The notes under the pieces: model-generated
The model's database searches: none
What the model was told of the DNA's origin: nothing
What the model saw: the letters and a program-made list of their open reading frames with translations, nothing else
Program-made: the position numbers and the translations under genes
Shown: positions 3,001 through 23,001 of the stretch, in pieces
Numbering within the stretch: position 1 is the first letter of the stretch
Layout of the letters: each line of letters begins with the position of its first letter
Assembly (NCBI GenBank): GCA_944349655.1
Contig: CALVNL010000003.1
Span: 15,252-79,251 of the forward strand
DNA length: 64,000 bases
Direction of reading: 5' to 3'
Source: an uncultured Clostridia bacterium
Lineage (GTDB): Bacteria > Bacillota > Clostridia > Christensenellales > DTU072

Positions 3001-4978
3001 AATGCGCAACGGGGAAAGGTATGTTGCCGAGAGAACTTTTGTTCAATTTAATTTCTTTATCGGAAAAAATCTTCCCCGTATGTTCAAATTTTTCATATCC
3101 TTGTGCGATTTGTGAATCGTAACCTACCAAAAAGTCGCTCATAAAAAGGATTTCGTCAGTAAAAAACAGATTAGCTCCGTCATTATTGAATTCCGTATAA
3201 TCCCTCAATTTTACGTCGTCCAAGAATTGAGAAATAGCCTGATTATTGACCTGGTCGAAAATAGCCGCCGTTGCCATACCTGCGCCGATCAACCCGGGGA
3301 CGAAAACCGACGGATAGGTAGCGATTACCAACCCCGTTACTTCTACAGCCGTAACGGCGAGAGCCGTCGGTAAACAAGCCATCACCTTCGCAACGGTATC
3401 GGCGAATTTCCCCACCTTGACGATATCGTTTTTAGCATTGGTTAAATCTTCTAAAAATTTATCGACTTTGCCGGTTTTGCTTAAGAAATATCCTACCGTC
3501 CTGTTTGCCGTATTTTCAAACAGTTCGTCGTCGGAAAAAAATTTCGAGAGGACAGAATATACTGTTTTCGCCGCTTGTTTATTAATGGTTAAGATAATAT
3601 TTGAATTCAGAATGGAATCCAAACTTTCTCCGAAGGTCTGACCTGTGGGATACATATCTTTATATGTATCGTAACAAGATTTAAGCGTGTTTAATCCAAA
3701 TATAATAAATGAACTTACACCAAATTTTGTAACCTCGTTCCCGTCAGACTCATTCTCGATCCACTCCTTTACTATATTTGAATCTAAGTGCTTTAAAATA
3801 AGATAAAAATAGTTATTGACTAATTTGCCTAAAAATTCAACGTCTTCCAATAACTCGACGACAGGCTTGTGATAATCGACTCCGTCGCTGTCTTTCGATA
3901 TTGTGTAGAGCCTTGATAAGAGTTTATACTCATTTTCTCCGAGATATTTTTCTGTCAATTCTCTTTTTGATTTAAACAAAAGTACCAAATAATCGTCCAT
4001 ATCCATTTCCGTTTCTATCCCTTCGGCAATACTCGCAAACCTGCTTATTTCGGCAAAATGACTCCTGTCAATTGCACCCGCGAAAGAATAGGCTTTGATA
4101 TCGGGATTTTGAACGACGGTCACGTTATTCCAAGCGGACTTTAATTGCGAAAGTAACGACGAGTTCCCGTCCGCAAACTCATAGATATTGCTTCCGCCCA
4201 ATATCTCTTCCGGTTTTTGCAAATTAGCTCCGTATTGTTTCAGCATTTGAAAGAGCTTTAGAGTGTCCGCTCCGTTATGGGGCGTTCCTATATTATAGAG
4301 TGCGTTAACAGCGGTAGGGTGGTCGTTGGCATATTTAATCCCCAGCAATCCCCCTCTGCCGTGTCCGATAATGTTAACGGAGGCATTAAGCGCTGTGGAT
4401 TTTTTCAAGTCATACAGAACCAGTGTGATAAGTTTGTTTAATTCGGCATAAGCCAAAGCGAAATTACCCTTTTTTTTCGAAAAATTTATTAGTATAACTA
4501 TATGCTCCACACCGTTGTCGGAAAAGTTCGAAAATACTCCTTCGGAACTTTTAATTTCGTCTTTTTCTAAAACGAAATCTTCATTTTGAAGAAGTTTTAT
4601 GTACAAATCGGAATTTTCGAAAAAAGCCGAATACAGCTGAACGTTGCTATGTGTCGAAGCCATTTGTTCGGGCAGATACTCGGCGTTGTAAGAAAAACCG
4701 CCCTTAAAATAATTGTTACTCCACACCGATGCGTTTTCGTTGATATCCGGGACTAATACCGTCAACATCGGGACTTTTGCGGATATCGACGGATAAGCGA
4801 TTACCGATGATTTTTGCGACAGCGTCAAATTCGGATCTGTTCCCGTAAAGGCGGATATGTCGATATCCGCTTTTGCCGCATTCGGCTGAGTCGGTATGCC
4901 GATAATCGTCATTACCGCAAATAAAATCAGAAAAACCGCGATCATAACTGCTAAACTTTTGTTTCTTTTCGTTTTCAT
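1..4978 (-). CDS. Large secreted surface protein, 1659 codons visible, C-terminus runs off the window start. Contains a signal peptide, a lipase-like alpha/beta-hydrolase domain with a degenerate nucleophile motif, BspA-type leucine-rich repeats and Listeria-Bacteroides (InlB B-repeat-like) modules
   Basis: Absent from the ORF track because no stop lies in the window. My own reverse-complement translation starts at the ATG at 4978 (GGAG at 4986-4990). It reads MKTKRNKSLAVMIAVFLILFAVMTIIGIPTQPNA and is still open at nt 2 (last codons NLHISNINVTIT). Motifs read: NIIGHGRGGLLG..IGTPHNG (lipase-like); repeated VVKIGEGAFKE..VVLPSGLEEIGAEAF (LRR); GYYLSGW, GYTLVGF, GYKFDGW repeats. I did not translate every codon of the middle. 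Confidence 0.8.
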   Translation of the reverse strand, partial: MKTKRNKSLAVMIAVFLILFAVMTIIGIPTQPNAAKADIDISAFTGTDPNLTLSQKSSVIAYPSISAKVPMLTVLVPDINENASVWSNNYFKGGFSYNAEYLPEQMASTHSNVQLYSAFFENSDLYIKLLQNEDFVLEKDEIKSSEGVFSNFSDNGVEHIVILINFSKKKGNFALAYAELNKLITLVLYDLKKSTALNASVNIIGHGRGGLLGIKYANDHPTAVNALYNIGTPHNGADTLKLFQMLKQYGANLQKPEEILGGSNIYEFADGNSSLLSQLKSAWNNVTVVQNPDIKAYSFAGAIDRSHFAEISRFASIAEGIETEMDMDDYLVLLFKSKRELTEKYLGENEYKLLSRLYTISKDSDGVDYHKPVVELLEDVEFLGKLVNNYFYLILKHLDSNIVKEWIENESDGNEVTKFGVSSFIIFGLNTLKSCYDTYKDMYPTGQTFGESLDSILNSNIILTINKQAAKTVYSVLSKFFSDDELFENTANRTVGYFLSKTGKVDKFLEDLTNAKNDIVKVGKFADTVAKVMACLPTALAVTAVEVTGLVIATYPSVFVPGLIGAGMATAAIFDQVNNQAISQFLDDVKLRDYTEFNNDGANLFFTDEILFMSDFLVGYDSQIAQGYEKFEHTGKIFSDKEIKLNKSSLGNIPFPVAHYLQTMDVDFINKIMETIEINNPNMLDYNFILDDLNKTATITGVRNLNLSDNGALVLPDEILNYTVVKIGEGAFKEKSISSVVLPSGLEEIGAEAFLGCGSLTAVSLPSTLIKIGERAFLECALSTVGIGENVSEIGELAFGKNSVAFTVDSGNAYFMSSEGSLYDKLQKVLIKYGGTGSSLTLPSSVEEIADFAFYGNNLFTTISLPGVKKIGKYAFYQSGLSTVNYSSAVESVGECAFEGTSWLNANCVNGFFILNNRLVRYKDVEGVTDITVPSNVTRIFSKAFKGSTVHSIRFPAGLQYIEGRILEDCVSIERVEFRGQITPTVEGLLTDGTGNMALKIYVPYSYRNLYEENLSYLKAYNGPFYNICNVRYYDITDPDYYVTQEFIDEDLPLTINVASPRSDLTFAGWSDNSNSFSGKTTILSAEQDINLYAFYKYPVTFVLDNGEADVTQSVIYHDYFSFPTPVKEGYYLSGWNNLTNEGSYLASTTSWQLNNDLTATSGWTIKAEWAPNRYELKVEENGGWWIYLDNDSLPALSGSVQWIRYGDQINKSLLIQEFKSHGLGFRTGYTLVGFSFTDPSAGSGGIDGPSNGATTGEHTSFTVPYMGEDGNTVTVTGEFDNADNLPGPSNAPLSSDADSYYLYALYEPETYYIKLYLNNQLQNAISGTYTYGDLLPELGYIADLHCDFVKWSTQSLDSLAPSAATPDGPYDSSTIYDFTPGQDLELFSSNALILYALLRRRCEVKFKNFDGSVLKTEYVLYGGNATPPAVSRLGYKFDGWDCSYSNVNSENLVCTAQFSRSSYIISNNYSGTMTFSDYAVYVDCSNPIKGALYKIASSVNVITFEDHSNTTGLALFANNFQRIEVLSRNTPITIILINYYSIATNTTNGIIGNYATINLYCKGTNVITGGVLSTNGPILDYSSAGIYTNTLNITGESGASLTVWGGIGNTGTGGIGYSNTAADNNIGANGGDGANGYDGGYGIVCVNLHISNINVTIT

Positions 4979-4989
4979 ATTTATACTCC

Positions 4990-5721
4990 TTATTTGTTTT
5001 CTCTCCACCCTGCATAGAGATACACGATCTCTTCGTCGTCTTTGACGTATCCGTCAAGACTGATACCGTTGACGCATTCCGCTTCCGCATACCACCCGAC
5101 GAAAGTATATCCCTCTCTTTTGGGCGTTTCGGGTATGACCTCCAACGTCTCCCCGACGTCCAGATCGTCTATGAAAAACACTCCTTTATTCGGCGCCTCG
5201 TCGTAGTTATACATATATTGCATATTGGCAAAGGTATAAACCGTAGGATTGGGAATGTTCTCTTGATAACTTTCCAGCGCCTCGGTCGCTATATAGAAAT
5301 CGGGTTCCATGATCATTCCGCGACGATATTCGCAGGAAACATACAAAACTTTTAAATCATCAGGCCAATCGTTGACAAACATGGAACCGGGTGCTATTCC
5401 ACCGAATGAATTTATTCTTGTCATATTATATGAAACGATTATTTTCCTCACGTTGGGCGCTGTTGCAATTCCTGTATATTTTGTAACCGGTATCCCGTCT
5501 ATTTCTAAAGGAATTACAATATTTTTCAATTTCGTACCCTTTTCTGTCAAACCGTCTATGAAAACTACTTCATAATCTTTGCCGTAATAGATATGATATC
5601 TGAAATACTCGCTTTCAAAATTATTGTCTTTATCGCCACAACCGTACAAAACCGCCGTCGATAACACTATCAGCACGAACACAAGCAGAATACTCGTTAT
5701 TTTCTTTGATTGACTTTTCAT
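4990..5721 (-). CDS. Lipoprotein, tandem paralog 1 of 3 (LRR-like N-half, Listeria-Bacteroides repeat C-half)
   Basis: ORF 4990..5760 trimmed to the internal ATG (MKSQSKKITSILLVFVLIVLSTAVLYGC, lipobox-like LYGC). An AAGGAGA RBS precedes it. C-terminal REGYTFVGWYAEAEC..YLYAGW. Confidence 0.75.
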   Translation of the reverse strand: MKSQSKKITSILLVFVLIVLSTAVLYGCGDKDNNFESEYFRYHIYYGKDYEVVFIDGLTEKGTKLKNIVIPLEIDGIPVTKYTGIATAPNVRKIIVSYNMTRINSFGGIAPGSMFVNDWPDDLKVLYVSCEYRRGMIMEPDFYIATEALESYQENIPNPTVYTFANMQYMYNYDEAPNKGVFFIDDLDVGETLEVIPETPKREGYTFVGWYAEAECVNGISLDGYVKDDEEIVYLYAGWRENK

Positions 5722-5738
5722 TTCTTTTCTCCTTGCTC

Positions 5739-6476
5739 TCATATTGTGTTTTCTCTCCACCCTGCATAGAGATACACGATTTCTTCGTCGTCTTTGACGT
5801 ATCCGTCAAGACTGATGCCGTTGACGCATTCCGCTTCCGCATACCACCCTACGAAAGTATATCCCTCCCTTTTGGGTGTTTCGGGTATGACCTCCAACGT
5901 CTCCCCGACGTCCAGATCGTCTATGAAAAACACTCCTTTATTCGGCGCTTCGGCGTAGTTGTACATATATTGCATATTGGCAAAGGTATAAACCGTAGGA
6001 TTGGGTATGTTCTCTTGATAACTTTCCAACGCCTCGGTCGCTATATAGAAATCGGGTTCCATTATCATTCCGCGACGATATTCGCAGGAAACGTATAATA
6101 CTTTTAAGTTCGGGAGAAATCCGTTAACGAATAAAGAGCCGGGTACTAACCCACCAAAAAATGCATTAATGGTTGTAACATTATATGAAACGATTATTTT
6201 CCTCAAGTTAGGTGCTGTTGCACTTCCGTTACATGTTTTAACGGGTTTTCCGTCTATTTCTAAAGGAATTACAATATTTTTTAATTTTGCTCCCTTTTCT
6301 GTCAAACCTTGAATAAGAACAACTTCTCCACCGTTAAAAGGAACGGTTCGACACCTGAAATACTCGGTTTCAAAATCATTGTCTTCATCGACGCAACCGT
6401 ACAAAACCGCCGTCGATAACACTATCAGCACGAACACAAGCACAATACTCGTTATTTCCTTTGATTTACTTTTCAT
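5739..6476 (-). CDS. Lipoprotein, tandem paralog 2 of 3
   Basis: ORF 5739..6515 trimmed to MKSKSKEITSIVLVFVLIVLSTAVLYGC. Same architecture as its neighbours; the C-terminal ~115 aa are nearly identical to paralogs 1 and 3. Confidence 0.75.
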   Translation of the reverse strand: MKSKSKEITSIVLVFVLIVLSTAVLYGCVDEDNDFETEYFRCRTVPFNGGEVVLIQGLTEKGAKLKNIVIPLEIDGKPVKTCNGSATAPNLRKIIVSYNVTTINAFFGGLVPGSLFVNGFLPNLKVLYVSCEYRRGMIMEPDFYIATEALESYQENIPNPTVYTFANMQYMYNYAEAPNKGVFFIDDLDVGETLEVIPETPKREGYTFVGWYAEAECVNGISLDGYVKDDEEIVYLYAGWRENTI

Positions 6477-6493
6477 TTCTTTTCTCCTTGCTC

Positions 6494-7228
6494 TCATATT
6501 GTGTTTTCTCTCCACCCTGCATAGAGATACACTATCTCTTCATCGTTTTTGACGTATCCGTCAAGACTGATACCGTTGACGCATTCCGCTTCCGCATACC
6601 ACCCGACGAAAGTATATCCCTCTCTTTTGGGTGTTTCGGGTATGACCTCCAACGCCTCACCGATGTCCAGATCGTCTATGAAAAAAACTCCTTTATTCGG
6701 TGCCTCGTCGTAGTTGTACATATATTGCATATTGGCAAAGGTATAAACCGTAGGATTGGGTATGTTCTCTTGATAACTTTCTAAAGCCTCGGTCGCTATA
6801 TAGAAATCGGGTTCCATCATCATTCCGCGACGATATTCGCAGGAAACGTATAGAACTTTTAAGTTCGGGGGAAATCCGTTAACGAACAAAGAACCGGGTA
6901 CTATTCCTCCGAATGAATTAATGGTTGCACAGTTATATGTCACGATTATTTTCCTTACGTTGGGCGCTATTGCACTCCCGTTATACGCTTTGACAGGTTT
7001 TCCGTCTATTTCTAAAGGAATTACAATATTTTTCAGTTTCGTACCCTTTTCTGTCAAACCGTCTATAAAAATCGCATCATAATCTTTAGCCTGGACAATA
7101 TGATATCTGAAATACTCGGTTTCAAAATTATTGTCTTCATCGACGCACCCGTACAAAACCGCCGTCGATAATAATATCAGCACGAACACAAGCACAATAC
7201 TCGTTATTTTCTTTGCTATACTTTTCAT
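6494..7228 (-). CDS. Lipoprotein, tandem paralog 3 of 3
   Basis: ORF track 244 aa, MKSIAKKITSIVLVFVLILLSTAVLYGC. Same architecture. Confidence 0.75.
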   Translation of the reverse strand: MKSIAKKITSIVLVFVLILLSTAVLYGCVDEDNNFETEYFRYHIVQAKDYDAIFIDGLTEKGTKLKNIVIPLEIDGKPVKAYNGSAIAPNVRKIIVTYNCATINSFGGIVPGSLFVNGFPPNLKVLYVSCEYRRGMMMEPDFYIATEALESYQENIPNPTVYTFANMQYMYNYDEAPNKGVFFIDDLDIGEALEVIPETPKREGYTFVGWYAEAECVNGISLDGYVKNDEEIVYLYAGWRENTI

Positions 7229-7387
7229 TTTTCTCCTGATTTTTAGACCTTTATACTTTTATCCGCGACTTATAAATATCGATTATTATTTTTGAATATC
7301 CTTTTATATATTAGTTACAATTTACACGGTAAAAAGTGACAACGTCTTTTAAATTTATAAAAAAATTTTCGTTTTTCCATAAGCGAC

Positions 7388-7415
7388 AAAAAAGAAGTGT
7401 CCGTAAAACACTTCT
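7388..7415 (-). terminator. Rho-independent terminator ending the sigma/peptidase/membrane-protein operon
   Basis: On the plus strand: A-run, then AGAAGTGT (7393-7400), 7-nt loop, ACACTTCT (7408-7415). On the minus strand this is a stem followed by a T-run, 33 nt after the stop at 7448. Confidence 0.65.
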
Positions 7416-7447
7416 TTCAATTCATTCTTTTTATAATTTATATATTT

Positions 7448-8116
7448 TTATTTTTTTTCTATTATTCTGTTCAACTGTTCGATGAAATGACTATCTTCAT
7501 CGAAACTAATAATTTCAGCCGTTATATAAACTGTTTCTTCTTCAATATTTATTTCCCCTTTTACAGTAAAAAAATAGAGTCCTTCGTCTTCTGAATATGT
7601 TTCAACGTATTCGATTGCGTATCCGATAACGGTATCTCTTTTTATATACTCTTTATGCTCAAATTCAATATTATAATTCGGATTAACTGCAACCACAAAA
7701 TCCATCTGATTCAGCCCGTCTTCGTCGACAAAATTTACCGAATAAAAAAGAGTTTCTCCGTAATCCTCGTCTTCGAATCTGTTTATACTATAATTACCAT
7801 TGACAAAAGTAAAATATTGTAACTCTTCGTTCAATGCTTCGACTGTTATATTTTGCGAGGATAAGTTTTCCTCTAAATACACTCTTGGAGCCGTATCGTT
7901 TGTTTCGTCTTCGGACCCTATAAAAAATACGCAAAGTAAAACAACCGCTATCGTGATAACGGAAAATACCGTGCCGACAATCAAAGGAATAAATTTCCTT
8001 TTATTCCATGTAACCGATCTCATTTCTTTTTGTTTTTCTTTTAACGTTATCAAAGATTCGGTCTTAGCCAAATTCTTCGTCTGCCTTGCTGCGTATTTTT
8101 TTAATTTCTTATTCAT
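7448..8116 (-). CDS. Single-pass membrane protein (basic cytoplasmic N-terminus, one TM, extracytoplasmic domain); possible anti-sigma factor
   Basis: 222-aa ORF with AAGGTGG RBS. The TM segment FIPLIVGTVFSVITIAVVLLCVFFI follows a ~40-aa K/R-rich N-terminus. Third gene of the sigma-factor operon. The function is an inference only. Confidence 0.6.
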   Translation of the reverse strand: MNKKLKKYAARQTKNLAKTESLITLKEKQKEMRSVTWNKRKFIPLIVGTVFSVITIAVVLLCVFFIGSEDETNDTAPRVYLEENLSSQNITVEALNEELQYFTFVNGNYSINRFEDEDYGETLFYSVNFVDEDGLNQMDFVVAVNPNYNIEFEHKEYIKRDTVIGYAIEYVETYSEDEGLYFFTVKGEINIEEETVYITAEIISFDEDSHFIEQLNRIIEKK

Positions 8117-9317: not shown

Positions 9318-9875
9318 TCAAATATCGTTTTTCATAATATAGTTGCATAAAGAGTCCGTAAAAGTGACAGATGAAAAAAATTTTTTTAACTTTTTTATAA
9401 TTCTTTTATGTCTTTGCCTGACCGCATCATAACGTAAATTCAAAATCGCCGCAATTTCTTTTAACTTGTATCCTTCCCAATAATACAAGTCAACAATTTC
9501 CTGTTCGGTTTTATCTAATTGCTTAATTGCATAGTATAAATCACCATAGAGTTCTTCCTTTGTCAGCACATCAACTTCCGCTATGATTTGATTTAAATCT
9601 GAATAAGCGTATCTTGAATCGTATTTAACTTTTCTTTTTGCTAAACTGTCACAGTTCAAATAAACCCAAGTTGTGGGATTAGCAACATACCCGAATTTTT
9701 CTTTTTCCAATAAGCTGTTGAAAAAATCCTGCGCTATATCTTCGGCAAATGTTCTACCGTATTTTTTTCCGATATGATAAATTATTTTTCCATAGTAAAA
9801 ATTATAGAGTTTCTCTAAAGCACGTTCACTTGTCCGTAATGTTTTTAATAATAAGTTAAATTCTATTTCGTTCAA
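9318..9875 (-). CDS. Sigma-70 family (ECF-like) RNA polymerase sigma factor
   Basis: 185 aa. C-terminal region-4 HTH: LYYWEGYKLKEIAAILNLRYDAVRQRHKRIIKKLKK. N-terminal region-2-like segment. Confidence 0.75.
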   Translation of the reverse strand: MNEIEFNLLLKTLRTSERALEKLYNFYYGKIIYHIGKKYGRTFAEDIAQDFFNSLLEKEKFGYVANPTTWVYLNCDSLAKRKVKYDSRYAYSDLNQIIAEVDVLTKEELYGDLYYAIKQLDKTEQEIVDLYYWEGYKLKEIAAILNLRYDAVRQRHKRIIKKLKKFFSSVTFTDSLCNYIMKNDI

Positions 9876-10057
9876 GTGAATTTCTCCTTCATTTGTTTTC
9901 GAAAATTATATCAAAAAATATAAATAATGTAAATACTTCAAAAATGCTTTCGCAGTTAAGACCGGTACTGAAAAAACACTGCAAAAACGAAACTTTAACT
10001 ATCTTATAAAGAATACAAAATCTACAAACAATAATTATATATTTTTAAAATCTATAT

Positions 10058-10097
10058 AAAAAAACTCAACCTAACCTTTTTTCTGGTTCCGTTGAGT
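10058..10097 (-). terminator. Hairpin plus T-run, read as the orphaned terminator of tRNA-Ser(GGA), displaced by island insertion
   Basis: ACTCAAC (10064-10070) pairs with GTTGAGT (10091-10097). An inner AACC/GGTT helix is also present. The A-run 10058-10063 is a T-run on the minus strand. No minus-strand gene ends upstream of it in the present arrangement. Confidence 0.55.
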
Positions 10098-10179: not shown

Positions 10180-11718
10180 TTATACCTTGATGCCAGGTGT
10201 TTCTAGGATGGTCGCTTTTTCCGCAGATAGTTTTTTAATCGTGTTAATTCCAGTTTTGATAGCTGTAATTATACTCTTGTATTTGCTTGATTTATCTATT
10301 ATTCTGTGCGTTTCAAATAGCAACAAAATCTCTTTTAAGATAAAAACCAAGCAATGATCTGTTGCCATAATAATATTCACTATGTCACCCCAGGAGCCAC
10401 TATTTGCATACCATAAGTAACCATTTGCATGAGATATCATTTGACTCTCAACATAATCTAAAAGCATTACTCGATCCCAAGAGGTAGAAGATTTTGGATT
10501 CTTGACAGAAAACTTTGATACAAAATCTTTTACTATTCGGGTAAGGCTTTCCGTGGAACCTTTATCGTCAATGGAATACCCTGTTGTTGTACGGAAGTTT
10601 TTCTCAAATATGCTTTGTTCGATTCCATTAGGGTATAATGATTTATAATAGTTGTACGCTTTATCTAACGGGTATTCTTCACCTATGTTTCGTTTGATCT
10701 GCATGCGTTCATGTTCTTCAAGTAGCTTAAAACGCTCCTCTCGGGGGAAGGCACTCAAATAGCATTTTTGGAACGATGCTAGCATATCTAATATGATTTT
10801 CCATTTAGATTTTACTTGTTCGGGCAATCCAAGGAGTTTATCGGAGCAGATCTCTGAGAGTATAAGAGAGAGACTTGTTAATGTATCTGACGTATAATTC
10901 TTTCCAAAAGTCTTTTGAAATTCATTACTTATTTGATTTAGCGAATTACACTCTTGGACAACTAAATCATTGTATTTTCGTGATAAAACCGCGGTATATA
11001 TTGCGGTATAATACACCTCGAAAGTCAACCGTGTTAGAGGAAGAGTTGAGTACTCTTGTGTGATGAGGAGCAGGATGTCAGGAATAGTGGACCAAATTCC
11101 TTCGTTTGAATAGAAATCATTTACAGACGGATGAATTGCTTGGCTATACAGTCCGTAAAGTTTTGCATAATCCTCACCCAAGGTTTCTGCCACCGTTTTA
11201 CGATGGACAACATGGTCTTGGCATAGGAAGGGTAAGTTGCTTTTTACTATGTCATTTATTTCTTTAGCGGTATGACTACTGGATAGTTTTTCGCGGAAAA
11301 AAGTAACTGCGTCATCTTTGTCTTTCAAAAGTTTTTCGGGAATAAGAATTATGTCGGCAATATCTTGAAAATTTTTATAATAATTGTATTCAATCAGGTG
11401 AACTTGCTTTCTTAATAGTTCTATTTGTAGGTCTGAAATCTGCCCTTTTTGATATAGACGTTTTAACGCTAATCCTTCGAGAAAACAGCGTGCAGTAAGC
11501 AACATACCCGGACTACCAATATGTTGCAACAAAACGTCTTTTACGAAGGTTAATGCTTGGGAGGTCAAATAAAAATCTATAATATCGGTAAAAGATTCTG
11601 TCCCAAACAGTTCTTCATCTTCGGAACGCTTCATAAGGGCGTGATTATAAGTGAATAGTCTCCCCCAAAAAGTGTTTAATTCCTCAACAATTATTTGTGT
11701 GACATATTTCATCTGCAT
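10180..11718 (-). CDS. 512-aa predicted all-alpha protein of unknown function, partner of the SIR2 gene
   Basis: Starts 10 nt downstream of the SIR2 stop on the same strand. I find no P-loop or other catalytic motif. Two similar segments occur: YGLYSQAIHPS and YVESQMISHANG. One R-x6-H string is present (REKLSSSH). Confidence 0.7.
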   Translation of the reverse strand: MQMKYVTQIIVEELNTFWGRLFTYNHALMKRSEDEELFGTESFTDIIDFYLTSQALTFVKDVLLQHIGSPGMLLTARCFLEGLALKRLYQKGQISDLQIELLRKQVHLIEYNYYKNFQDIADIILIPEKLLKDKDDAVTFFREKLSSSHTAKEINDIVKSNLPFLCQDHVVHRKTVAETLGEDYAKLYGLYSQAIHPSVNDFYSNEGIWSTIPDILLLITQEYSTLPLTRLTFEVYYTAIYTAVLSRKYNDLVVQECNSLNQISNEFQKTFGKNYTSDTLTSLSLILSEICSDKLLGLPEQVKSKWKIILDMLASFQKCYLSAFPREERFKLLEEHERMQIKRNIGEEYPLDKAYNYYKSLYPNGIEQSIFEKNFRTTTGYSIDDKGSTESLTRIVKDFVSKFSVKNPKSSTSWDRVMLLDYVESQMISHANGYLWYANSGSWGDIVNIIMATDHCLVFILKEILLLFETHRIIDKSSKYKSIITAIKTGINTIKKLSAEKATILETPGIKV

Positions 11719-11728
11719 TGTTTGTAAG

Positions 11729-13075
11729 CTAAATTGCTAAATAATCAAGGAATTGTTTTAGATCAATTACAGTCGGGAACCAAATACACTCTACTCCAAT
11801 TCTCATAAAATGTCTATGAACAATGAATTGATCTTTTGTCGAGAGACCATCTGTCAACATTAGCGCAATATGAGTTTTTCCTTTAATTTGAGTTGTTTCC
11901 AGTATTCTTCGCAAATTAGGATCTGTTAAACTACAGCCAACGAATAGATACGTATTATCCCTATAAAGATAGTTTTGGAGAACTACCGACCAATGATAAG
12001 GATTATTATAAAGCTTATGATACTCAGATTCACTAAAAACAATATAATCTTTATACTGGCAATAATCTTTTGGTAAAATATTAAATGGTAAGTAACCATG
12101 TGTGTGATAGATACTTAATTCATTGTTGGAAAGCATACTTTCATTGAACATAATATTATGTTTCACGCCACAGGCGTCTAATTCTTGCTCTAAAAAATTA
12201 TCATAATTATATGTAATAATATTAAACTTTTTCTCGTTGTGCAATTTAACAACCAGTTTGGCAACATATTTCAAAGTGGAGTCAGGATAATTACTTATTG
12301 GCGGAGTATACTTATCATATAATCCTTTGTATAAACTTTTAATAAAGTCTTTTAAATTTTCTTGAGTAAATTGTCCATTTATAATACTCGTTCCACCTAT
12401 TTTCTTTTGTACTGATATTGAATTGTCAATTACTCCAGCCGATTCTATTTCTTTAAAAAAATCAGAGATAAGGACATCCCATCCTTTAGAACCATAATCA
12501 AGTGATACTCCAGCACCTAGAGATAAAGAAATCATTTTTTTTTGAACTAATTCTTGTAAAAGCAATTTATTATTTTTAATTTTAATATCAAAGTTTAAAA
12601 CTTCATTTAATGAGGCATTCTTTTCTATTTTATCGATTTTTTCGTTATAAAAGCTGTAGTAATCAATAGAATATTCCTTTGCCCATGTTGCTATTGTATT
12701 TTGATCCCAAACGACTATGTTTTCTTCGGCAAATCTATTATTGCTTGAACGACTGCCTTCTTTTAAATATCCATTTACTATGAACAAGCTGATATATTTT
12801 TTCGAATCCAACAGTGGATAGAATTTCATATTCCTGGCATTGTATTTTACTTCAATAATTACAGGCATTTTAAAATCGTCAAATCCTTCCGGTGCGAATC
12901 CATCAAATATACGTATGCCATGTGCAATAGCATTACGAATTTCATTTTTTTGATTAACATACTTAAATATATTTGTGTCTTTGAATTCACTAAAAAACGG
13001 CTTCCCTTGAACGGCACATTTTTGCCTAATTACGGATAAAACAAATTTTTCGAAATCTAATTCTTTATTAATCAT
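11729..13075 (-). CDS. SIR2-family (SIR2_2-type) protein with an N-terminal Mrr-like PD-(D/E)xK domain; putative NAD+-consuming defence effector
   Basis: SIR2_2-like blocks: SLSLGAGVSLDYGSKGW, ITYNYDNFLEQ, IYHTHGYLPF, YLFVGCSLTDPNLRRILE. N-terminal FEKFV..IFDGFAPEG..VIIEVKY resembles the Mrr/PD-(D/E)xK pattern. Confidence 0.75.
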   Translation of the reverse strand: MINKELDFEKFVLSVIRQKCAVQGKPFFSEFKDTNIFKYVNQKNEIRNAIAHGIRIFDGFAPEGFDDFKMPVIIEVKYNARNMKFYPLLDSKKYISLFIVNGYLKEGSRSSNNRFAEENIVVWDQNTIATWAKEYSIDYYSFYNEKIDKIEKNASLNEVLNFDIKIKNNKLLLQELVQKKMISLSLGAGVSLDYGSKGWDVLISDFFKEIESAGVIDNSISVQKKIGGTSIINGQFTQENLKDFIKSLYKGLYDKYTPPISNYPDSTLKYVAKLVVKLHNEKKFNIITYNYDNFLEQELDACGVKHNIMFNESMLSNNELSIYHTHGYLPFNILPKDYCQYKDYIVFSESEYHKLYNNPYHWSVVLQNYLYRDNTYLFVGCSLTDPNLRRILETTQIKGKTHIALMLTDGLSTKDQFIVHRHFMRIGVECIWFPTVIDLKQFLDYLAI

Positions 13076-13111
13076 ATTTTTTCATAAATCCTTGTCAGCA
13101 GTTTTAAAACT

Positions 13112-13140
13112 ATTATAACACTAATTCTGTTTTATTTCAA
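13112..13140 (-). promoter_or_regulatory. Sigma-70-type promoter for the SIR2 operon
   Basis: Minus-strand reading: TTGAAA (13140-13135), 17-nt spacer, TG-extended TATAAT (13117-13112). The ATG lies at 13075. Confidence 0.55.
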
Positions 13141-13218: not shown

Positions 13219-13256
13219 GAATTAAAATCTTATACCCTTGATGATTGGAGATAATT

Positions 13257-13466
13257 ATGGCAGTTAGTTATAAGAAACTTTGGAAGTTGCTTATCGACAA
13301 AGATATGAAAAAAGAGGATCTGCGCAAGGCAACCGGTATTACTACAACGGCAATGGCTAAACTCGGCAGGAACGAGAACGTTAATACCGAAATACTCGTA
13401 AAGATTTGTGCGGCACTTCAATGTGAACTAAATGACATTGTTGAAATTGTTGGCACAGAACAATGA
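13257..13466 (+). CDS. Small XRE/Cro-type helix-turn-helix regulator (possible RM controller protein)
   Basis: ATG at 13257 with GGAG 6 nt upstream (the track used an upstream TTG). Sequence: MAVSYKKLWKLLIDKDMKKEDLRKATGITTTAMAKLGRNENVNTEILVKICAALQCELNDIVEIV. Confidence 0.75.
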   Translation: MAVSYKKLWKLLIDKDMKKEDLRKATGITTTAMAKLGRNENVNTEILVKICAALQCELNDIVEIVGTEQ

Positions 13467-13536
13467 ATATTGTAAAGAATGAGATTGGTTTAATAATATT
13501 GAAAACCAAAGCGAATAAAGTATTAGGAGAAAAAAG

Positions 13537-15417
13537 ATGAATAGACACGATATTATAGATAGCATTGGAGCTAAATATCATGTTGGGAACACCGAGAATG
13601 GTGAATTTAGTTATGTTCAGGCATTAAAGTCTGTAGGTAAAGACATAAAAGATTATCAAAAAGCGGCGACTGGAACGAAGCACCAGTTTTTGGATATCCG
13701 ATTTACCAATGATCGCTTGGTAATCTTGGTTGAATGCAAGAGCAAATTCAGCCGTTGGGATAAGGCAAAGATACAAGGACAACTCCAAGACTATGTAAGA
13801 TTTGAAAAAGCTTACTCCGATAAAAAAATTGTTGCTATTTTGGCAGAAACCGAAGGCAACGATGTTTGGGTTTGGTATGGTCAATCGGTTATTATTGACG
13901 ACGAGCATAAAGTGTCAACAGAAACCGTTATTCGCACGTTTGGAGAGTATGAAAACTTGTGTTTTGGCAAGGTAAACGATAAGATAAAAATCGTCGATTC
14001 TATCAAGCAATTAAACGAAAAATTACATTCGGATGGTATTAATGAGAAATTGCGTAGTCAATTTGTCGGGACGTGTCTTCTTGCCTTAAAAAACGGCTTG
14101 GTTTACAAAGATGTAAAAGCGACATTGGATCCTAAAACAGGAAAAGAACTTTCTCCTGAAAAAGTTGTCTTAAGAAACATTAAAGATATTCTCGAAGGTC
14201 TGCTAACAAAGAGTGGGACGGTCAATATAAACAAAGCGAGTAAATTGACGATACTTAATAATAAAGTTCTCGGCGACCAAGACGTTGAAAGTCTTACTTA
14301 TGAAGAATTAAAAGAGATTTTAGAATATATCGATACAAATGTCGTTCCATATATTAACGATAAAAGTACTGCAGGGCAAGATTTATTAAACCTCTTCTTT
14401 ACAACGTTCAACAAATATGTTGGTAAATCTGATAAAAATCAGGCTTTTACTCCTGACCATATTTGCGACTTTATGAGCAAAGCCGTTGGCGTAAACAAGA
14501 ATTCTCGTGTTTTAGATCCTTGTTGCGGGAGTGGAGCTTTCTTGGTTAGAGCAATGACCGATGCAATGGATGATTGTGATACAGAAGACGAAAGAGAAGA
14601 TGTAAAGAAAGGGCAGATTTTTGGCATTGAATATGAAGACGGCGCCTTTGGACTGTCCTCTACAAATATGTTGATTCACGGTGATGGAAACTCAAACGTC
14701 ATACAAGCATCTATGTTCGATAAGGCAAAGTGGATTTCGGATAATAACATTAATGTTGTTTTGATGAATCCGCCTTACAATGCGACTAAAAAATGTTGTA
14801 ATCCCGAATATACAAAGAATTGGAGTGCAAACCAAAAAGAAGATCCGTCAAAGGGTTTGCATTTTGTTGAATTTGTTGCAAAACATGTTTCGAAACCTTG
14901 TAAGATTGCAGTCCTTCTCCCTATGCAAGCTGCTATCGGGAATAGTGGAGAAACAGCAGATTTTAAAAAGAAAATGTTAGACAATTATACGCTAGAAGCT
15001 GTTTTCTCGTTGCCTAATGATATGTTCTATCCTGGTGCTTCGGCAATTGCATGCTGCATGATATTCGATTTATCACAGAAGCATGAAAAAGCGAACAGAG
15101 AAACGTTTTTTGGATATTATAAAGATGATAAATTTATAAAGCGCAAGGGGCTTGGGCGTGTTGAAAAAACAGATGCAGATGGGAACAGCCTGTGGGTAAA
15201 AACGGAAGACCTGTGGTTGAATTTGTATCGAAATAAAAAGGAAGTGCCGGGACTGTCCGTTATGCACAAGGTGTCTTGGAAAGACGAATGGCTCGCTGAA
15301 GCTTATATGGAAACGGATTATTCCACCCTAAGCCAGCAAGATTTCCAAAATACCATCAATGAGTATTTGTCGTATTTAGTTAAAGAAGGTGGAATCTATG
15401 AATCTAAAATTAAGTAG
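13537..15417 (+). CDS. BcgI A-like Type IIB restriction-modification subunit (N-terminal PD-ExK endonuclease fused to a gamma-class N6-adenine methyltransferase)
   Basis: D53-x12-E66-x-K68 (FLDIRFTNDRLVILVECK, nt 13693-13740). SAM motif VLDPCCGSGAFLV precedes the catalytic VVLMNPPYN. 626 aa; AGGAGA RBS. Confidence 0.75.
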   Translation: MNRHDIIDSIGAKYHVGNTENGEFSYVQALKSVGKDIKDYQKAATGTKHQFLDIRFTNDRLVILVECKSKFSRWDKAKIQGQLQDYVRFEKAYSDKKIVAILAETEGNDVWVWYGQSVIIDDEHKVSTETVIRTFGEYENLCFGKVNDKIKIVDSIKQLNEKLHSDGINEKLRSQFVGTCLLALKNGLVYKDVKATLDPKTGKELSPEKVVLRNIKDILEGLLTKSGTVNINKASKLTILNNKVLGDQDVESLTYEELKEILEYIDTNVVPYINDKSTAGQDLLNLFFTTFNKYVGKSDKNQAFTPDHICDFMSKAVGVNKNSRVLDPCCGSGAFLVRAMTDAMDDCDTEDEREDVKKGQIFGIEYEDGAFGLSSTNMLIHGDGNSNVIQASMFDKAKWISDNNINVVLMNPPYNATKKCCNPEYTKNWSANQKEDPSKGLHFVEFVAKHVSKPCKIAVLLPMQAAIGNSGETADFKKKMLDNYTLEAVFSLPNDMFYPGASAIACCMIFDLSQKHEKANRETFFGYYKDDKFIKRKGLGRVEKTDADGNSLWVKTEDLWLNLYRNKKEVPGLSVMHKVSWKDEWLAEAYMETDYSTLSQQDFQNTINEYLSYLVKEGGIYESKIK

Positions 15418-16555
15418 TTGGCAATATTTTGATTACATAAGAATTTTTGATATCAAGAAAGGGTTTTATAACAAAAAGCCTGATCCATCTGGTTCTGGAA
15501 AAATTAATTTTATAGGCGCGACTGATCATAATAATGGCGTTACAGAAAGGTATACCCTAGATGAGATAGAAAACGCTTCTAGAACAGGTGATTTGCCAAA
15601 CGAATCATTAAGCAGAAAAGTTTTTCCGGCTCATGCGGTATGCGTAACAAACAATGGCTCCGTAGGTTACGCCTATTATCAAGAAGAATCTTTTACATGT
15701 AGTCACGATGTAAATCCATTATACTTGAAAGACGGGGAGTTTAATAAGTATACAGGCCTTTTTGTCGCAACTGTAATCATGCATGATAAATATCGTTGGG
15801 GATATGGTAGAAAATGGAGGCCTGAAAGAATGGTCAAATCTAAGATAAAACTCCCGATAGTGCAAGATGAAGATGGAAACCCTTTAATAGACGGGAGTAA
15901 AAAGTATTCAGATGATGGCTATTTGCCGGATTGGGCATTTATGGAAAAATACATGATGAACTTGTCTGTTAATCCTGTTTCTACTAATAATAAATCACCT
16001 GTATGCTCTTTTAATACAAAAGATTGGAAAGAGTTTCAGTTCGGCAAACTTATAGAAAATAATAATATCTATAAAGCAAAAGCTTATAGCAAAATAGAAC
16101 TAGAAACGAAAAATATTGCTGAAAAAGGGTATATTCATTTTGTTTCTCGCACGGAAGAGAATAATAGTATCGACTGTTATGTGATGAAAAGCGATTTTTC
16201 TGATATTGAAGAAGGGAATGCGATTACTATTGGAGATACCACATCCACTATAGCATATCAAAGCGAACTCTTTGTAAACGGAGATCACATCATTGTCATT
16301 CGTGCAGACTGGCTAAACAAGTATACTGGTATGTTTATTGTAAGTTTATTAAGAAAAGAGCGTTATCGTTATTCATATGGTAGAGCATTTTTAATGGATT
16401 CTATCAAGAATACAAAATTACATCTTCCTGTAAAAAAGCAGGATGGCAAACCTATTATTGATGATAGCCATACTTTTTCCGATGAAGGCTACTTGCCGGA
16501 TTGGGAATGGATGGAGACTTATATAAAGTCTTTGCCATACAGTGATAGAATTTAA
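15398..16555 (+). CDS. BcgI B / HsdS-like bipartite DNA-specificity subunit
   Basis: Start moved to the ATG at 15398 (AAGGTGG RBS), overlapping the upstream stop. There are two tandem halves, each ending in a conserved block: KIKLPIVQDEDGNPLIDGSKKYSDDGYLPDWAFMEKYM and KLHLPVKKQDGKPIIDDSHTFSDEGYLPDWEWMETYI. Confidence 0.65.
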   Translation: MNLKLSSWQYFDYIRIFDIKKGFYNKKPDPSGSGKINFIGATDHNNGVTERYTLDEIENASRTGDLPNESLSRKVFPAHAVCVTNNGSVGYAYYQEESFTCSHDVNPLYLKDGEFNKYTGLFVATVIMHDKYRWGYGRKWRPERMVKSKIKLPIVQDEDGNPLIDGSKKYSDDGYLPDWAFMEKYMMNLSVNPVSTNNKSPVCSFNTKDWKEFQFGKLIENNNIYKAKAYSKIELETKNIAEKGYIHFVSRTEENNSIDCYVMKSDFSDIEEGNAITIGDTTSTIAYQSELFVNGDHIIVIRADWLNKYTGMFIVSLLRKERYRYSYGRAFLMDSIKNTKLHLPVKKQDGKPIIDDSHTFSDEGYLPDWEWMETYIKSLPYSDRI

Positions 16556-16600
16556 CGTTCGTTCAATGATTCTTAAAATACACAAGCAAAGGAGTTGCTG

Positions 16601-19417
16601 ATGGAATATACTAGAGGATCAGAGTGGAGAAGATGGGATTTCCATCTACATACCCCTGACACAAAAAAGAATGATCAGTTCCAAGCGAATGGCAAAGGAA
16701 AATGGGAACTGTTTTATGAAAATATAGCTAATTACATTGGAGATAAAACCAATCCTCAAAAAACAATTGCAGCAGTCGGAATTACCGATTATTTTTCAGT
16801 TGAAAATTATAGAAAAGTAAAATCAGATGGAATATTGGCACGACATATTGACTTTATTTTTCCCAATATAGAACTTAGGTGTCTCCCCCTAAAAGACGGA
16901 GTAAAAATGAATGTTCATTTACTGATTAATCCATCTTTTATCGATAAAGTAGACACTATAATTCTTAGCAATTTAAAGTATTGCTCAATGGATACGGAGT
17001 ATTGTGCTCGTAAAGATGATTTAATAAGATTTGGAAAAGATCTGGATGCATCTTTGGATGATGAAATGGCCTATAAAAAAGGTGTTGAAAATTTTAATAT
17101 CAATTTTGACGATTTAATAAAAATATTAAAAAATCATCCAGAATGTAAAGATAATGTACTTATCTTAATGCCCAATAGGAGTACTGATGGTGCATCTGCA
17201 GTTGGAAATCCTACAAGCCCGTCAGTGGATCTATGTGATTTATGCGAATATAGAAGAGAATTATATAGAACATCGGATATTATTTTATCTGCGAATCCTT
17301 CGGACATAAATTTCTTTTTAGGTAAACGAGATAAGAAACCTGAAAAGATAATGCCTTGCGTTTGGGGGTGTGATGCTCATACAAACGAAGCTATCTTTGA
17401 ACCGCTTAATAGCGAAAAACAACCGACTAAAAGGTATTGCTGGATTAAAGCAGACCCGACATGGGAAGGATTAAAGCAGGTACTATTTGAACCAGAAGAG
17501 CGGGTTCGCATTCAAGAACTATGCCCAGCGGATAGAATTGACAATTATCGAATTATTGATCAAATTGTTATCGAGGATGATACGGTGCCCCATAGATTTT
17601 CGAATGATGCTATTCCCATCAATGAAAATCTTACTTGCATTATAGGTTTAAAGTCAACAGGTAAATCTATATTGCTGCAGAACATTGCACAGGCAATTGA
17701 TCCTACGGAAGTAACGACAAGATTTAATACAGTTTATGCAGGCAAGAGAATTCCTTTTGAGTTTCCCATAAAAGTATATTGGAAAGATGGTACCGTCTCA
17801 TCAAAAGATTCTAAAGATGATAAGAAAATAGTTTATATAGCACAGTCATATCTTAACAAGTTGATGGATGATTGTGCAGAGAAAACAGAAATTGATTCAA
17901 TAATTGAAGGTATAATCACTCAGAACGAAGATTTCTGCATTTTAAAAAAGAGTTTTGATGCAGAATTGATAGATATTCAAAAACAAATAGAATCTAAGAT
18001 TTTAGATTTAATATACAAACAAAGAGAGTTAATTGGACAAGTAGCTGTTATTAAAGATATTGGTAATCGAGAATCGATTGAAAAGAACATCGAACTGTTG
18101 CGCGAAAAAAAAGAATCAATAGCAAAATCTTTAAATCTATCAGCAGAAGATATTGCTAAATACGATAATGCAATTAATAAAAAGCAAGAACTGGAAGAAA
18201 ATTTGATTGTTTTACAGACAGACAGGAATACTATCGAAAACTCACAGTTTAGTGTTTATGTATGTGGTGAAACAAAAATAGTTGATGCTGAAATAACCAA
18301 TATGTACAATAATGCTCTTTCGTTAATAGAAAGTGAAGCATCGAAAAGATGGAATGAGAAAAAGCAAAGTATTGTTAAGAAAATAGACGAAAAATTATCC
18401 ACAATTAATAATGAATTAAAATCTACGATTGATGTCATTGAAGCCTTAAAACCAATGATGGATAGTAATGAAGAGATTAAGAGAATTGAAAATAATTTGA
18501 GGGCAGAAGAAACAAATTTACGAAAGATAAATGCGGAATTTGAAACACTAACTAATATTCAAAAGTCCATAAACTCTATTATAGAGAATATTCTATCTCT
18601 TTCGACATCACGTGAAAACAAATATGATTTATTCGCAGAGCAATTCAAAACGATTCATTTCAAAGATACGAATGAAAACTTTAAAATCATTGCAATAAAA
18701 AGAAGGCGTAGAGTTTACTTCAGAGACACAATAACAAAGATCTTTACACAAAATGCTTTAAAAACAATTCATAATGGTGTTTTTAGAAATTTTGACGATC
18801 CCTCTTTTATTTTAGAAAATGAGTATGACGAGGCTTGTAAAAAAGATTATATAAATGCGATTCTTGAAAACGACACACAAAAAGTTTTGCTAAGTAAATA
18901 TGAAAAAGATCGTGCATTGCAAGAACTATTTGGCGATTTTGATAATATTATTTATACGGTTGAAATGGATGGTGATCTTATCGAGAGTATGTCTCCCGGT
19001 AAAAAGGCATTAGTTCTGTTGAAACTACTTATAAGTCACGATGAGTCAAAATGTCCAATTCTGTTAGATCAGCCCGAAGACGATTTAGATAACCTCTCCA
19101 TAGTATCCGATTTAGTTGCCTTTATAAAAGAACGAAAAAGGGATCGACAAATAGTTTTGGTGACACATAACGCAAATTTGGTCCTAGGCTGTGATGCTGA
19201 AGAAGTAATTGTGGCAAATCAGCAAATAGACAATAATTCACTTACACATAATAAATCATTTAGATTCGAGTATCGCTCTGGATCTATAGAAAATATAACC
19301 ACAACGGATTCAGATACTTTCCTAGGATCAAGAGGCATTCAACAACATATTTGTAATATTCTAGAAGGCGGAAAAGAAGCATTTATTGCAAGGAAAAATA
19401 AATATACCAATTTGTAA
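16601..19417 (+). CDS. Fused PHP-domain phosphoesterase / Rad50-SMC-like coiled-coil ABC ATPase (Ppl/TrlF-like defence protein)
   Basis: Start at the ATG at 16601 (AAGGAG 6 nt upstream). PHP motifs: FHLHTP (H15, H17), GITDYF, NIELR, NVHLLI, GCDAH. Walker A: GLKSTGKS (aa 349-356). A ~300-aa heptad-rich insert follows. Signature-like MSPGKKAL, Walker B ILLDQPEDDLD, H-loop VTHNANL. Confidence 0.75.
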   Translation: MEYTRGSEWRRWDFHLHTPDTKKNDQFQANGKGKWELFYENIANYIGDKTNPQKTIAAVGITDYFSVENYRKVKSDGILARHIDFIFPNIELRCLPLKDGVKMNVHLLINPSFIDKVDTIILSNLKYCSMDTEYCARKDDLIRFGKDLDASLDDEMAYKKGVENFNINFDDLIKILKNHPECKDNVLILMPNRSTDGASAVGNPTSPSVDLCDLCEYRRELYRTSDIILSANPSDINFFLGKRDKKPEKIMPCVWGCDAHTNEAIFEPLNSEKQPTKRYCWIKADPTWEGLKQVLFEPEERVRIQELCPADRIDNYRIIDQIVIEDDTVPHRFSNDAIPINENLTCIIGLKSTGKSILLQNIAQAIDPTEVTTRFNTVYAGKRIPFEFPIKVYWKDGTVSSKDSKDDKKIVYIAQSYLNKLMDDCAEKTEIDSIIEGIITQNEDFCILKKSFDAELIDIQKQIESKILDLIYKQRELIGQVAVIKDIGNRESIEKNIELLREKKESIAKSLNLSAEDIAKYDNAINKKQELEENLIVLQTDRNTIENSQFSVYVCGETKIVDAEITNMYNNALSLIESEASKRWNEKKQSIVKKIDEKLSTINNELKSTIDVIEALKPMMDSNEEIKRIENNLRAEETNLRKINAEFETLTNIQKSINSIIENILSLSTSRENKYDLFAEQFKTIHFKDTNENFKIIAIKRRRRVYFRDTITKIFTQNALKTIHNGVFRNFDDPSFILENEYDEACKKDYINAILENDTQKVLLSKYEKDRALQELFGDFDNIIYTVEMDGDLIESMSPGKKALVLLKLLISHDESKCPILLDQPEDDLDNLSIVSDLVAFIKERKRDRQIVLVTHNANLVLGCDAEEVIVANQQIDNNSLTHNKSFRFEYRSGSIENITTTDSDTFLGSRGIQQHICNILEGGKEAFIARKNKYTNL

Positions 19418-21130: not shown

Positions 21131-21328
21131 TTGAAGCGGATACAAGAAAACACCGTTGAGGTCAATCTGTCAACGGGACACAAAGAAAAAGGCAGATTAA
21201 ATCTGCCGAAAGAAAGAATACAAACAAGCGCAAAAATTTTAGCCGATATTTTACTCGACTATGCGAGAAACGGCGGTAATATGGACGTTTTAACGCCCGA
21301 GAGCGTATTCGGCAGGAGAAAGCAATGA
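21131..21328 (+). CDS. Hypothetical small ORF overlapping the recombinase start (ATGA)
   Basis: TTG start, no clear RBS. Support comes only from the 4-nt overlap with the recombinase ATG. Confidence 0.25.
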   Translation: MKRIQENTVEVNLSTGHKEKGRLNLPKERIQTSAKILADILLDYARNGGNMDVLTPESVFGRRKQ

Positions 21329-22932: not shown

Positions 22933-22936
22933 ACCC
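22891..22936. repeat. Perfect 9-bp inverted repeat GGGTTCAAA / TTTGAACCC spanning 46 bp, centred on the tRNA CCA end (att-site-like)
   Basis: Arms at 22891-22899 and 22928-22936; the right arm is the tRNA T-arm. A further TTGAACC copy lies at 22880-22886. Confidence 0.6.
22909..22916. repeat. Right copy of the 8-bp direct repeat CTTGGCGG (putative att core)
   Basis: Identical to 10102-10109. Covers the tRNA 3'-terminal CCGCCA plus 2 nt. Confidence 0.55.
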
Positions 22937-23001
22937 ACGGTACGCTTTTGGCGTACACACGATTTCCAATCGTGCTCCTTCGACCCCTCGGACATCTCTC
23001 C
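22911..23001 (-). tRNA. tRNA-Ser (anticodon GGA), class II with long variable arm, CCA encoded
   Basis: Hand fold of the minus-strand sequence. Acceptor GGAGAGA/TCTCTCC; D stem TCC/GGA; anticodon stem CACGA/TCGTG with loop TTGGAAA. Variable arm GTACGC/GCGTAC; T stem GTGGG/CCCAC with loop TTCAAAT; discriminator G then CCA. 91 nt. Confidence 0.9.

Follow-up and report, generated by a model that had tools for sequence, protein, structure and literature searches.

ThsA, DSR1, DSR2 and KomC are defence proteins that deplete NAD+. In ThsA, a component of Thoeris, the SIR2 domain is N-terminal and is followed by a C-terminal SLOG/STALD domain that binds glyco-cyclic ADP-ribose (gcADPR), and ThsA needs a partner, ThsB, with a TIR domain. 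DSR1 and DSR2 are proteins of about 1000 amino acids (aa) in which SIR2 is N-terminal and large sensor repeats make up the C-terminal part, while KomC is a 264-aa SIR2-only subunit of the multi-gene Kongming system. In SIR2-HerA, a SIR2 gene is followed in one operon by a gene for a protein of some 500–600 aa. The locus described here has the same outward layout. It lies in a stretch of 64,000 nucleotides (nt) from an uncultured Clostridia bacterium (contig CALVNL010000003.1, positions 15,252 to 79,251), referred to below as the window, and comprises a gene for a 448-aa SIR2 protein and, immediately downstream, a gene for a 512-aa helical protein, here called the partner. The two genes do not make up a conserved two-gene system. 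They are probably two autonomous defence-island cassettes that share one promoter in an island marked by a serine recombinase, the SIR2 protein acting as a single-chain sensor-effector and the partner being separate from it.

Comparison with the described systems brings out what is familiar and what is not. ThsA (6lhx, 8bto, 8btp) is the best match, by profile and by fold, to residues ~170–448 of the SIR2 protein, and the GAG loop, the catalytic Asn and the His all align. In the 448-aa protein, however, the SIR2 domain is C-terminal and there is no SLOG domain; the PADLOC match to ThsA covers only profile positions 17–211 of 478, and the protein ends with its SIR2 domain. Nor is there a candidate ThsB: library scans gave no TIR match among the products of the neighbouring genes (the helical partner, the HTH_26 protein, the methyltransferase, the S subunit, the TrlF ATPase and the sigma-70-like protein). 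DSR2 and KomC share the SIR2 fold with the 448-aa protein, but the domain is N-terminal in the DSR proteins, and KomC lacks the N-terminal PD-(D/E)xK-like domain that the 448-aa protein adds. The likeness to SIR2-HerA ends with the gene order, since the partner is all-helical in its model, has no Walker A motif and matches neither DUF87 nor HerA in Pfam or PADLOC, as had been expected from the absence of a recognizable P-loop. A further point of reference is the type IV restriction endonuclease Mrr, in which an Mrr_N winged helix precedes an Mrr_cat domain of the PD-(D/E)xK type, an order that is paralleled, with SIR2 added, in relatives of about 600 aa. Compared with Mrr, the 448-aa protein lacks Mrr_N and a Pfam match to Mrr_cat, its lysine K77 is not universal in the family, and it is a predicted nuclease at most. 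The partner family, for its part, is reminiscent of DUF5677 (PF18928), itself a family without known function, but has an extra C-terminal helical half of about 300 aa with the motifs EQVKSKWK and SHANGY. PADLOC assigns the locus to no system, in line with the initial annotation, which had recognized no named SIR2 system in it, and neither an Mrr-like/SIR2 fusion nor a system combining SIR2 with DUF5677 was found described in the literature.

Do the two genes belong together? The initial annotation had proposed a two-gene defence system in which the partner would be the sensor or regulator of the SIR2 effector, and had named beforehand the co-localisation of homologues in other genomes as one of the observations on which this proposal would stand or fall. 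Co-occurrence was surveyed in both directions. On the SIR2 side, first 90 and then 93 loci with homologues 24–65% identical were inspected for a partner homologue within 4–5 kilobases (kb), and there was none (0/90, then 0/93); the N-terminal domain of the SIR2 protein was retained in 77 of the 90. On the partner side, the survey took in 24 species-level genome loci together with metagenomic contigs, from which came 22 independent loci with at least 1.4 kb of upstream sequence. According to the family profiles, this SIR2 gene lies near the partner in only two of them (L013 and L126), and the other 20 are without it. These two copies are 98.5% and 95% identical, respectively, to the window cassette at the nucleotide level; with all three at least 95% identical, they count as one evolutionary event. 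Homologues of the two genes are thus not co-localised in divergent genomes, and both the two-gene system and the role of the partner as sensor or regulator are left unsupported.

The closest relatives of the partner illustrate how readily its surroundings change. At L122, where the partner is 87% identical to that in the window, a different gene lies upstream with the same 10-nt gap; the end of this gene encodes a winged-helix-like peptide, not SIR2, and the homology to the window fades within the first ~60 nt of the partner gene. Homology of L126 to the window stops at window position 10214, just inside the 3' end of the partner gene. In both of these closest relatives, a 305-aa gene follows the partner after 29 nt (L126 3896-4813; L122 1750-2667). 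It was considered as the true mate of the partner and rejected, since neither the window nor any other locus has it; it gave no Pfam match. At L013 (CP091734, a Clostridiales metagenome-assembled genome, positions 4649-7538), the SIR2 gene and the partner gene are each split into two open reading frames (ORFs), reflecting either frameshift errors in a long-read assembly or inactivated genes.

Elsewhere, the partner keeps varied company. Its immediate neighbours include RhuM, HerA, DUF2971 (twice), a trypsin-like protease, a membrane protein, a type III Res subunit, RNase III-like proteins (three times), AbiH, NOV_C (twice), Fic and GGDEF proteins, with no neighbour family present in more than 3–4 partner loci. 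PADLOC matches were obtained in nine of ten further neighbours tested, and the matches comprised Hachiman HamB, a SIR2+HerA pair, PARIS AriAB, a Septu-like PtuA, PDC-S49, PDC-S39, PDC-M54A and a DdmE-like protein. The SIR2+HerA pair (L009) is complete and lies directly upstream of the partner homologue as a separate system. In three loci (L002, L012 and L019) the partner has no tightly linked neighbour at all. Such varied and already complete neighbouring systems form the pattern of an autonomous defence-island gene. The same kind of setting was reported independently for DUF5677, found to be enriched in serine-recombinase-marked defence islands of Bacillota (2025 preprint, PMC12632615).

Two of the neighbouring families deserve a word of their own. 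The RNase III-like genes (L017 2231-3220, L027 2407-3390 and L022 325-1401) lie 157–226 nt upstream of the partner homologues and encode unusually long proteins of 327–358 aa (RNase III, a Dicer-dimer-like region and a dsRBD), which are either housekeeping rnc products or a defence-linked variant. Genes for 238-aa Thg1-like proteins, of the tRNA-His guanylyltransferase family, occur at L002 4972-5688 (minus strand), next to the partner homologue, and at L037 4270-4986, next to a SIR2 homologue and a helix-turn-helix (HTH) gene. The two are 34% identical to each other, and they may represent a defence-island family.

The SIR2 homologues are no more constant in their associations. Three of them, 55–65% identical to the window protein, lie inside or right after type I hsd operons (L032, L036 and L123), and a more distant one has an hsdR-like neighbour (L104); another follows the HTH and Thg1-like genes at L037. 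The homologue in Abiotrophia (L039) is alone. Such settings (beside type I hsdR genes, beside HTH and Thg1-like genes, or solitary) were seen for homologues at 34–64% identity. Overall, a restriction-modification (RM) neighbour is present in only 8 of the 93 SIR2-family loci.

What, then, are the two proteins? The 448-aa protein is a defence-type SIR2 protein, as judged from its sequence, with a catalytic Asn (N290) and His (H326). All four motif blocks picked out in the initial annotation are in place, GAGVS at residues 187–191, TYNYD at 288, HTHG at 324 and FVGCSLTDPNL at 378, and Pfam SIR2_2 (PF13289) matches residues 286–410 with 63.4 bits against a cut-off of 24.5 (E 3e-17). A family search returned 1286 matches. 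With the family profile, the best match in the PDB is ThsA (6lhx, E 1.8e-14), in the alignment to which N290 corresponds to the Asn of the NYD motif and H326 to the His of the MHG motif; all 39 aligned sequences of the family keep N290, H324, H326 and the GAG loop (G187/G189) unchanged. The AlphaFold2 (AF2) model (pLDDT 89, pTM 0.88) finds ThsA, KomC and DSR2 in Foldseek at a probability of 1.0 (ThsA 8btp at 2.8e-12), which bears out the proposed likeness to NAD+-depleting defence proteins, and PADLOC gives partial ThsA and SIR2 matches only. By analogy with the behaviour of ThsA, DSR2 and KomC, and given the conserved catalytic residues, the domain would be expected to hydrolyse NAD+.

The N-terminal domain is plausibly called Mrr-like. 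The motifs FEKFV (residue 8), IFDGF (56) and IIEVKY (73) had suggested an Mrr or PD-(D/E)xK nuclease core, and this proposal holds for the motifs themselves, for the D58...E75-x-K77 arrangement, for the topology and for the domain context, but not for a profile match to Mrr_cat. D58 and E75 are invariant in one family alignment (A3) and E75 in another (A2), and K77 is present in most members. Secondary structure in the AF2 model (H4-22, E59-61, E72-77, E95-100, H106-110, E120-123) follows the order alpha-beta-beta-beta-alpha-beta, which fits a restriction-endonuclease core, and a PD-(D/E)xK fold is predicted from sequence and model together. Ten relatives of about 590–607 aa carry Mrr_N (46–68 bits, cut-off 29.5), then a homologue of this domain, then SIR2_2. 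The domain of the window protein, which itself has no Mrr_N, aligns in hhalign with residues 126–251 of one of them, P0159, which come after its Mrr_N (probability 96.7%, E 4.4e-10). Since the homologue thus follows Mrr_N, in the place that Mrr_cat takes in Mrr, the name is fair. An outright assignment to Mrr_cat by sequence was rejected, as no Pfam or PDB profile supported it: the PDB profile search with this domain matched nothing, and a single family member gave a weak RE_Bsp6I match (E 0.0088). The relatives with all three domains (P0159, P0166, P0167, P0169, P0172, P0177, P0178, P0186, P0188 and P0192) constitute a subfamily in which a full Mrr-type module is fused to a SIR2 NADase, and no description of this architecture was found in the searchable literature.

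The partner is harder to place. It has no match in Pfam, PADLOC, NCBIfam or PHROGs, the sole line being KaiC at 14.9 bits, far under its cut-off. Its family nevertheless is sizeable, with 78 clusters in a word search and 248 representatives at 50% identity in a profile search, and nearly all members are ~500 aa long and align end to end. Across 37 family sequences, 34 residues are invariant, in the motifs RCxLEGLALK, SQxIHPS, EQVKSKWK and YVESQMxSHANGY; the His, Glu and Lys residues among them hint at a defined site for catalysis or ligand binding. Modelling with AF2 gives a confident structure (pLDDT 89.9, pTM 0.91) that is wholly helical, with 23 helices. The fold comparison proposed at the outset was run with this model, and Foldseek found no significant match in the PDB or BFVD (best E 0.16, TM at most 0.16); a sequence-profile search of the PDB produced noise only (EB3, E 0.15). 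Distant likeness to DUF5677 appears in 18 of the 37 family members, all below the gathering threshold, the best being P0020 with 26.0 bits (E 1.1e-05) against a cut-off of 27.1 bits, over profile positions 56–156 of 166. Sequence and model together thus suggest a family of ~500-aa, all-helical proteins distantly resembling DUF5677. The partner was not found in plasmids or phages by tblastn, nor in a scan of IMG/VR viral contigs.

Other interpretations of the partner were considered and set aside. The two related SQ-containing segments noticed earlier, SQAIHPS at residue 192 and ESQMISHANGY at 424, are both real and conserved, but the internal duplication that they might imply was rejected, the two halves aligning in hhalign with a probability of 0.3%. 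A HEPN reading was dropped because the only Rx6H motif on an invariant His (R329...H336) has an Arg that is not conserved. A membrane protein is unlikely, as the transporter-like Foldseek matches were insignificant and the one hydrophobic helix (KD19 1.86) lies within the compact model. Two hybrid proteins, P0073 and P0078, carry the C-terminal half of the partner (from residue ~246 or ~279) on an N-terminus consisting of NERD and the start of a helicase or of a KAP P-loop NTPase. Each is found on one or two contigs; genuine domain shuffling may have produced them, or deletions that fused neighbouring genes of an island.

In the window, the two genes look like one transcription unit, given a promoter-like site in front and a terminator-like hairpin behind (Table 1), and they are probably co-transcribed, to judge from these signals. 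The promoter-like site, already described as near-consensus, matches 11 of 12 consensus positions and has an extended -10 element (TG before the -10); as predicted from this consensus match, it would serve both genes. The hairpin (CUCAACG...GGUUGAG, followed by seven U) lies some 85–125 nt past the stop codon of the partner gene, and a simple terminator scan did not list it. Both ORFs and their 10-nt spacing are as first annotated, the junction reading TAG cttacaaaca ATG. The sole Shine-Dalgarno-like sequence, AAGGA (window 13068-13085, minus strand), is followed after 4–5 nt by an ATG in another frame, the start of a mini-ORF of five codons (MKKYD) that overlaps the SIR2 start codon; this mini-ORF may encode a leader peptide or be a coincidence.

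Table 1. Positions in the window of the two genes, their domains and signals, and the surrounding island features
Feature	Position	Strand	Basis
448-aa SIR2 gene (stop codon included)	11729..13075	minus	ORF listing
N-terminal domain, residues 1 to ~150, PD-(D/E)xK-like, with E9, D58, E75 and K77	12626..13075	minus	alignments, AF2, hhalign
SIR2 domain of NADase type, residues ~170-448	11732..12568	minus	PDB profile search, Foldseek, family alignment
512-aa partner gene	10180..11718	minus	ORF listing
DUF5677-like stretch of partner, residues ~109-201, including SQAIHPS	11116..11394	minus	family matches to PF18928
Intergenic junction, 10 nt (cttacaaaca)	11719..11728	minus	direct sequence reading
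Promoter-like site, TTGAAA-17-TGtTATAAT	13112..13140	minus	consensus scan and direct reading
Intrinsic-terminator-like hairpin with run of seven U	10057..10097	minus	RNA fold, coordinates
HTH_26 (Cro/C1-type) gene, divergent, upstream of RM-like module	13245..13466	plus	Pfam (E 9e-18)
RM-like module	13537..19417	plus	Pfam, PADLOC, NCBIfam scans
Large serine recombinase, 535 aa (Resolvase, Recombinase, Zn_ribbon_recom)	21325-22932	plus	Pfam
tRNA-Ser(GGA), overlapping recombinase 3' end	22911-23001	minus	ARAGORN, Rfam

The surroundings are those of a mobile island, as had been supposed: the serine recombinase gene overlaps the tRNA-Ser gene, the two probably constituting the integration module, and the GC content is low from about 7 to 20 kb of the window. 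The placement of the pair between an RM system and the end of the island was only partly right. An RM-like module does lie on one side, but on the other side there is a cluster of sigma-factor and surface-protein genes, and the recombinase and the tRNA-Ser lie beyond the RM-like module. This module encodes a type IIG-like or MAD2-like N6-methyltransferase (626 aa), a specificity subunit (388 aa) and an ATPase of the TrlF family (940 aa; NCBIfam, 515 bits) whose C-terminus is Ppl-like. The methyltransferase and specificity genes are shared by L013, where homology ends at 16555, before the ATPase gene; the HTH_26 gene, likewise divergent, is present in L126. Counted together with this controller-like gene, the module spans 13245-19417 of the window. 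On the far side of the partner, at 4990-7228 on the minus strand, are three paralogous genes in tandem, slightly overlapping, whose products (256, 258 and 244 aa) begin with signal-peptide-like sequences; the two products that were scanned (256 and 244 aa) carry the Listeria-Bacteroides repeat (Flg_new). Upstream of these genes, in the order of transcription, are the sigma-70-like gene (9318-9875) and two genes without a Pfam match. From position 1 to about 5050, also on the minus strand, a stop-free frame of at least 1684 codons, probably the gene for a giant surface protein, runs off the start of the window, and for this reason no ORF of 150 aa or more is listed in the first 5 kb.

How might the two cassettes work? 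The two genes are read as independent because their homologues do not co-occur and because the partner adjoins varied defence systems. The first gene would encode a single-polypeptide candidate abortive-infection protein, whose N-terminal Mrr-like PD-(D/E)xK domain would be its nucleic-acid sensor or nuclease module and would recognize, and perhaps cut, foreign or modified DNA. Activation would probably involve oligomerisation, as in ThsA, KomC and DSR2, after which the SIR2 domain would hydrolyse NAD+ by way of N290 and H326, starving both the infected cell and the phage. The family of the second gene appears to travel between defence islands independently; its product most probably functions by itself, in defence or as an accessory to defence, and would work through a polar site formed by the motifs with invariant His, Glu and Lys.

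Several observations weigh against this picture of two autonomous cassettes. No Pfam match to Mrr_cat was obtained for the 448-aa protein or for any of the 22 sequences of its N-terminal domain, and K77 is replaced in several family members, for which reason the domain may bind rather than cut. The window partner itself has no DUF5677 match and reaches no Pfam threshold, and of the ORFs assayed in E. faecalis against six phages, five were protective, the one DUF5677 ORF not being one of them (PMC12632615). The 10-nt gap has no Shine-Dalgarno-like sequence on direct reading, which suggests translational coupling and would fit a functional pair in this lineage. Finally, in about two thirds of the partner loci another gene on the same strand lies no more than 50 nt away, which leaves some room for an accessory role. 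The last two points speak for different arrangements. Coupled translation, together with the promoter and terminator in common and the retention of the pair in three contexts, those of the window, L013 and L126, would suit a true pair restricted to this lineage, in which the Mrr-like/SIR2 effector acquired the helical protein as its sensor, regulator or antitoxin. Against this, the three contexts amount to a single evolutionary event, the other gene is missing from 93 of 93 SIR2 loci and from 20 of 22 partner loci, SIR2 homologues at 34–65% identity have no partner homologue (P0128 being alone), and at L122 the partner stands behind another gene with the same spacing; a true pair is therefore quite improbable. 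The tight neighbours, being effector-like and variable, would rather suggest a promiscuous accessory module, which as a portable sensor or modulator would serve whichever effector lies next to it (SIR2, SIR2-HerA, RhuM, DUF2971, trypsin-like protease, AbiH or NOV_C nuclease), and the joining of the C-terminal half of the partner to NERD or KAP-NTPase N-termini in P0073 and P0078 suggests modular use. Several of the neighbours, however, are complete and known to work alone (SIR2-HerA, Hachiman and PARIS), some partner loci have no tight neighbour, no neighbour family goes beyond 3–4 loci, and the hybrids, on their one or two contigs each, may be deletion products, so that this arrangement seems very improbable indeed.

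It may also be asked whether the partner belongs to defence at all, the alternative being that it is a passenger or maintenance gene of the island (addiction, regulatory or anti-defence) and that the SIR2 gene alone is defensive. The lack of protection by the tested DUF5677 ORF and the lack of any catalytic family or fold match for the partner are in keeping with this, and the link to recombinase-marked islands would suit a maintenance gene just as well. On the other hand, no match to the partner turned up in sequenced plasmids, phages, IMG/VR contigs or PHROGs, its gene sits within arrays of defence genes and not beside recombinases, and 34 of its residues, polar or aromatic, are invariant, which points to a specific activity; little probability is therefore given to a mere passenger. 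The SIR2 protein, in turn, could be tied to the adjacent RM module as an RM-guarded suicide effector, like PrrC in type Ic hsd loci, which would be compatible with two autonomous cassettes. The three independent cases of close homologues lying in or behind type I hsd operons, the hsdR-like neighbour at L104 and the position of the window gene next to an RM-like module all agree with such a tie. Yet most of the family lacks an RM neighbour, with members beside Thg1-like genes or alone, the window gene points away from the RM module and is preceded by a promoter of its own, and defence genes in general tend to land in RM operons. A dedicated link of this kind is unlikely. The favoured reading thus remains that of two autonomous cassettes brought under one promoter. 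There is, in addition, a slim prospect that the partner is a portable immune module with a fold unlike that of solved or viral structures. It would then either act alone against phage by a new chemistry or serve promiscuously as sensor or modulator of whatever effector adjoins it, in this locus gating the Mrr-like/SIR2 NADase through translationally coupled co-expression.

The apparent pair was split by the reciprocal neighbourhood test into two independent cassettes, showing that tight operon spacing in the compact genomes of gut Clostridia does not by itself define a defence system. Each cassette has a significance of its own. Among defence NADases, a known kind of protein, the 448-aa candidate stands out by a new architecture, and it fits no named system; it is part of a broad, unnamed family of ~450–600-aa proteins that combine an Mrr-type DNA-recognition or nuclease module with a SIR2 NADase, and that could link a type IV-restriction-like sensing of foreign DNA to the depletion of NAD+. 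The partner represents an uncharacterised family that could be new. With its 34 invariant residues, a confident model without a fold match, and neighbours drawn from defence (Hachiman, SIR2-HerA, PARIS, Septu-like and RM systems), it may reasonably be considered for a single-gene defence function not yet described.

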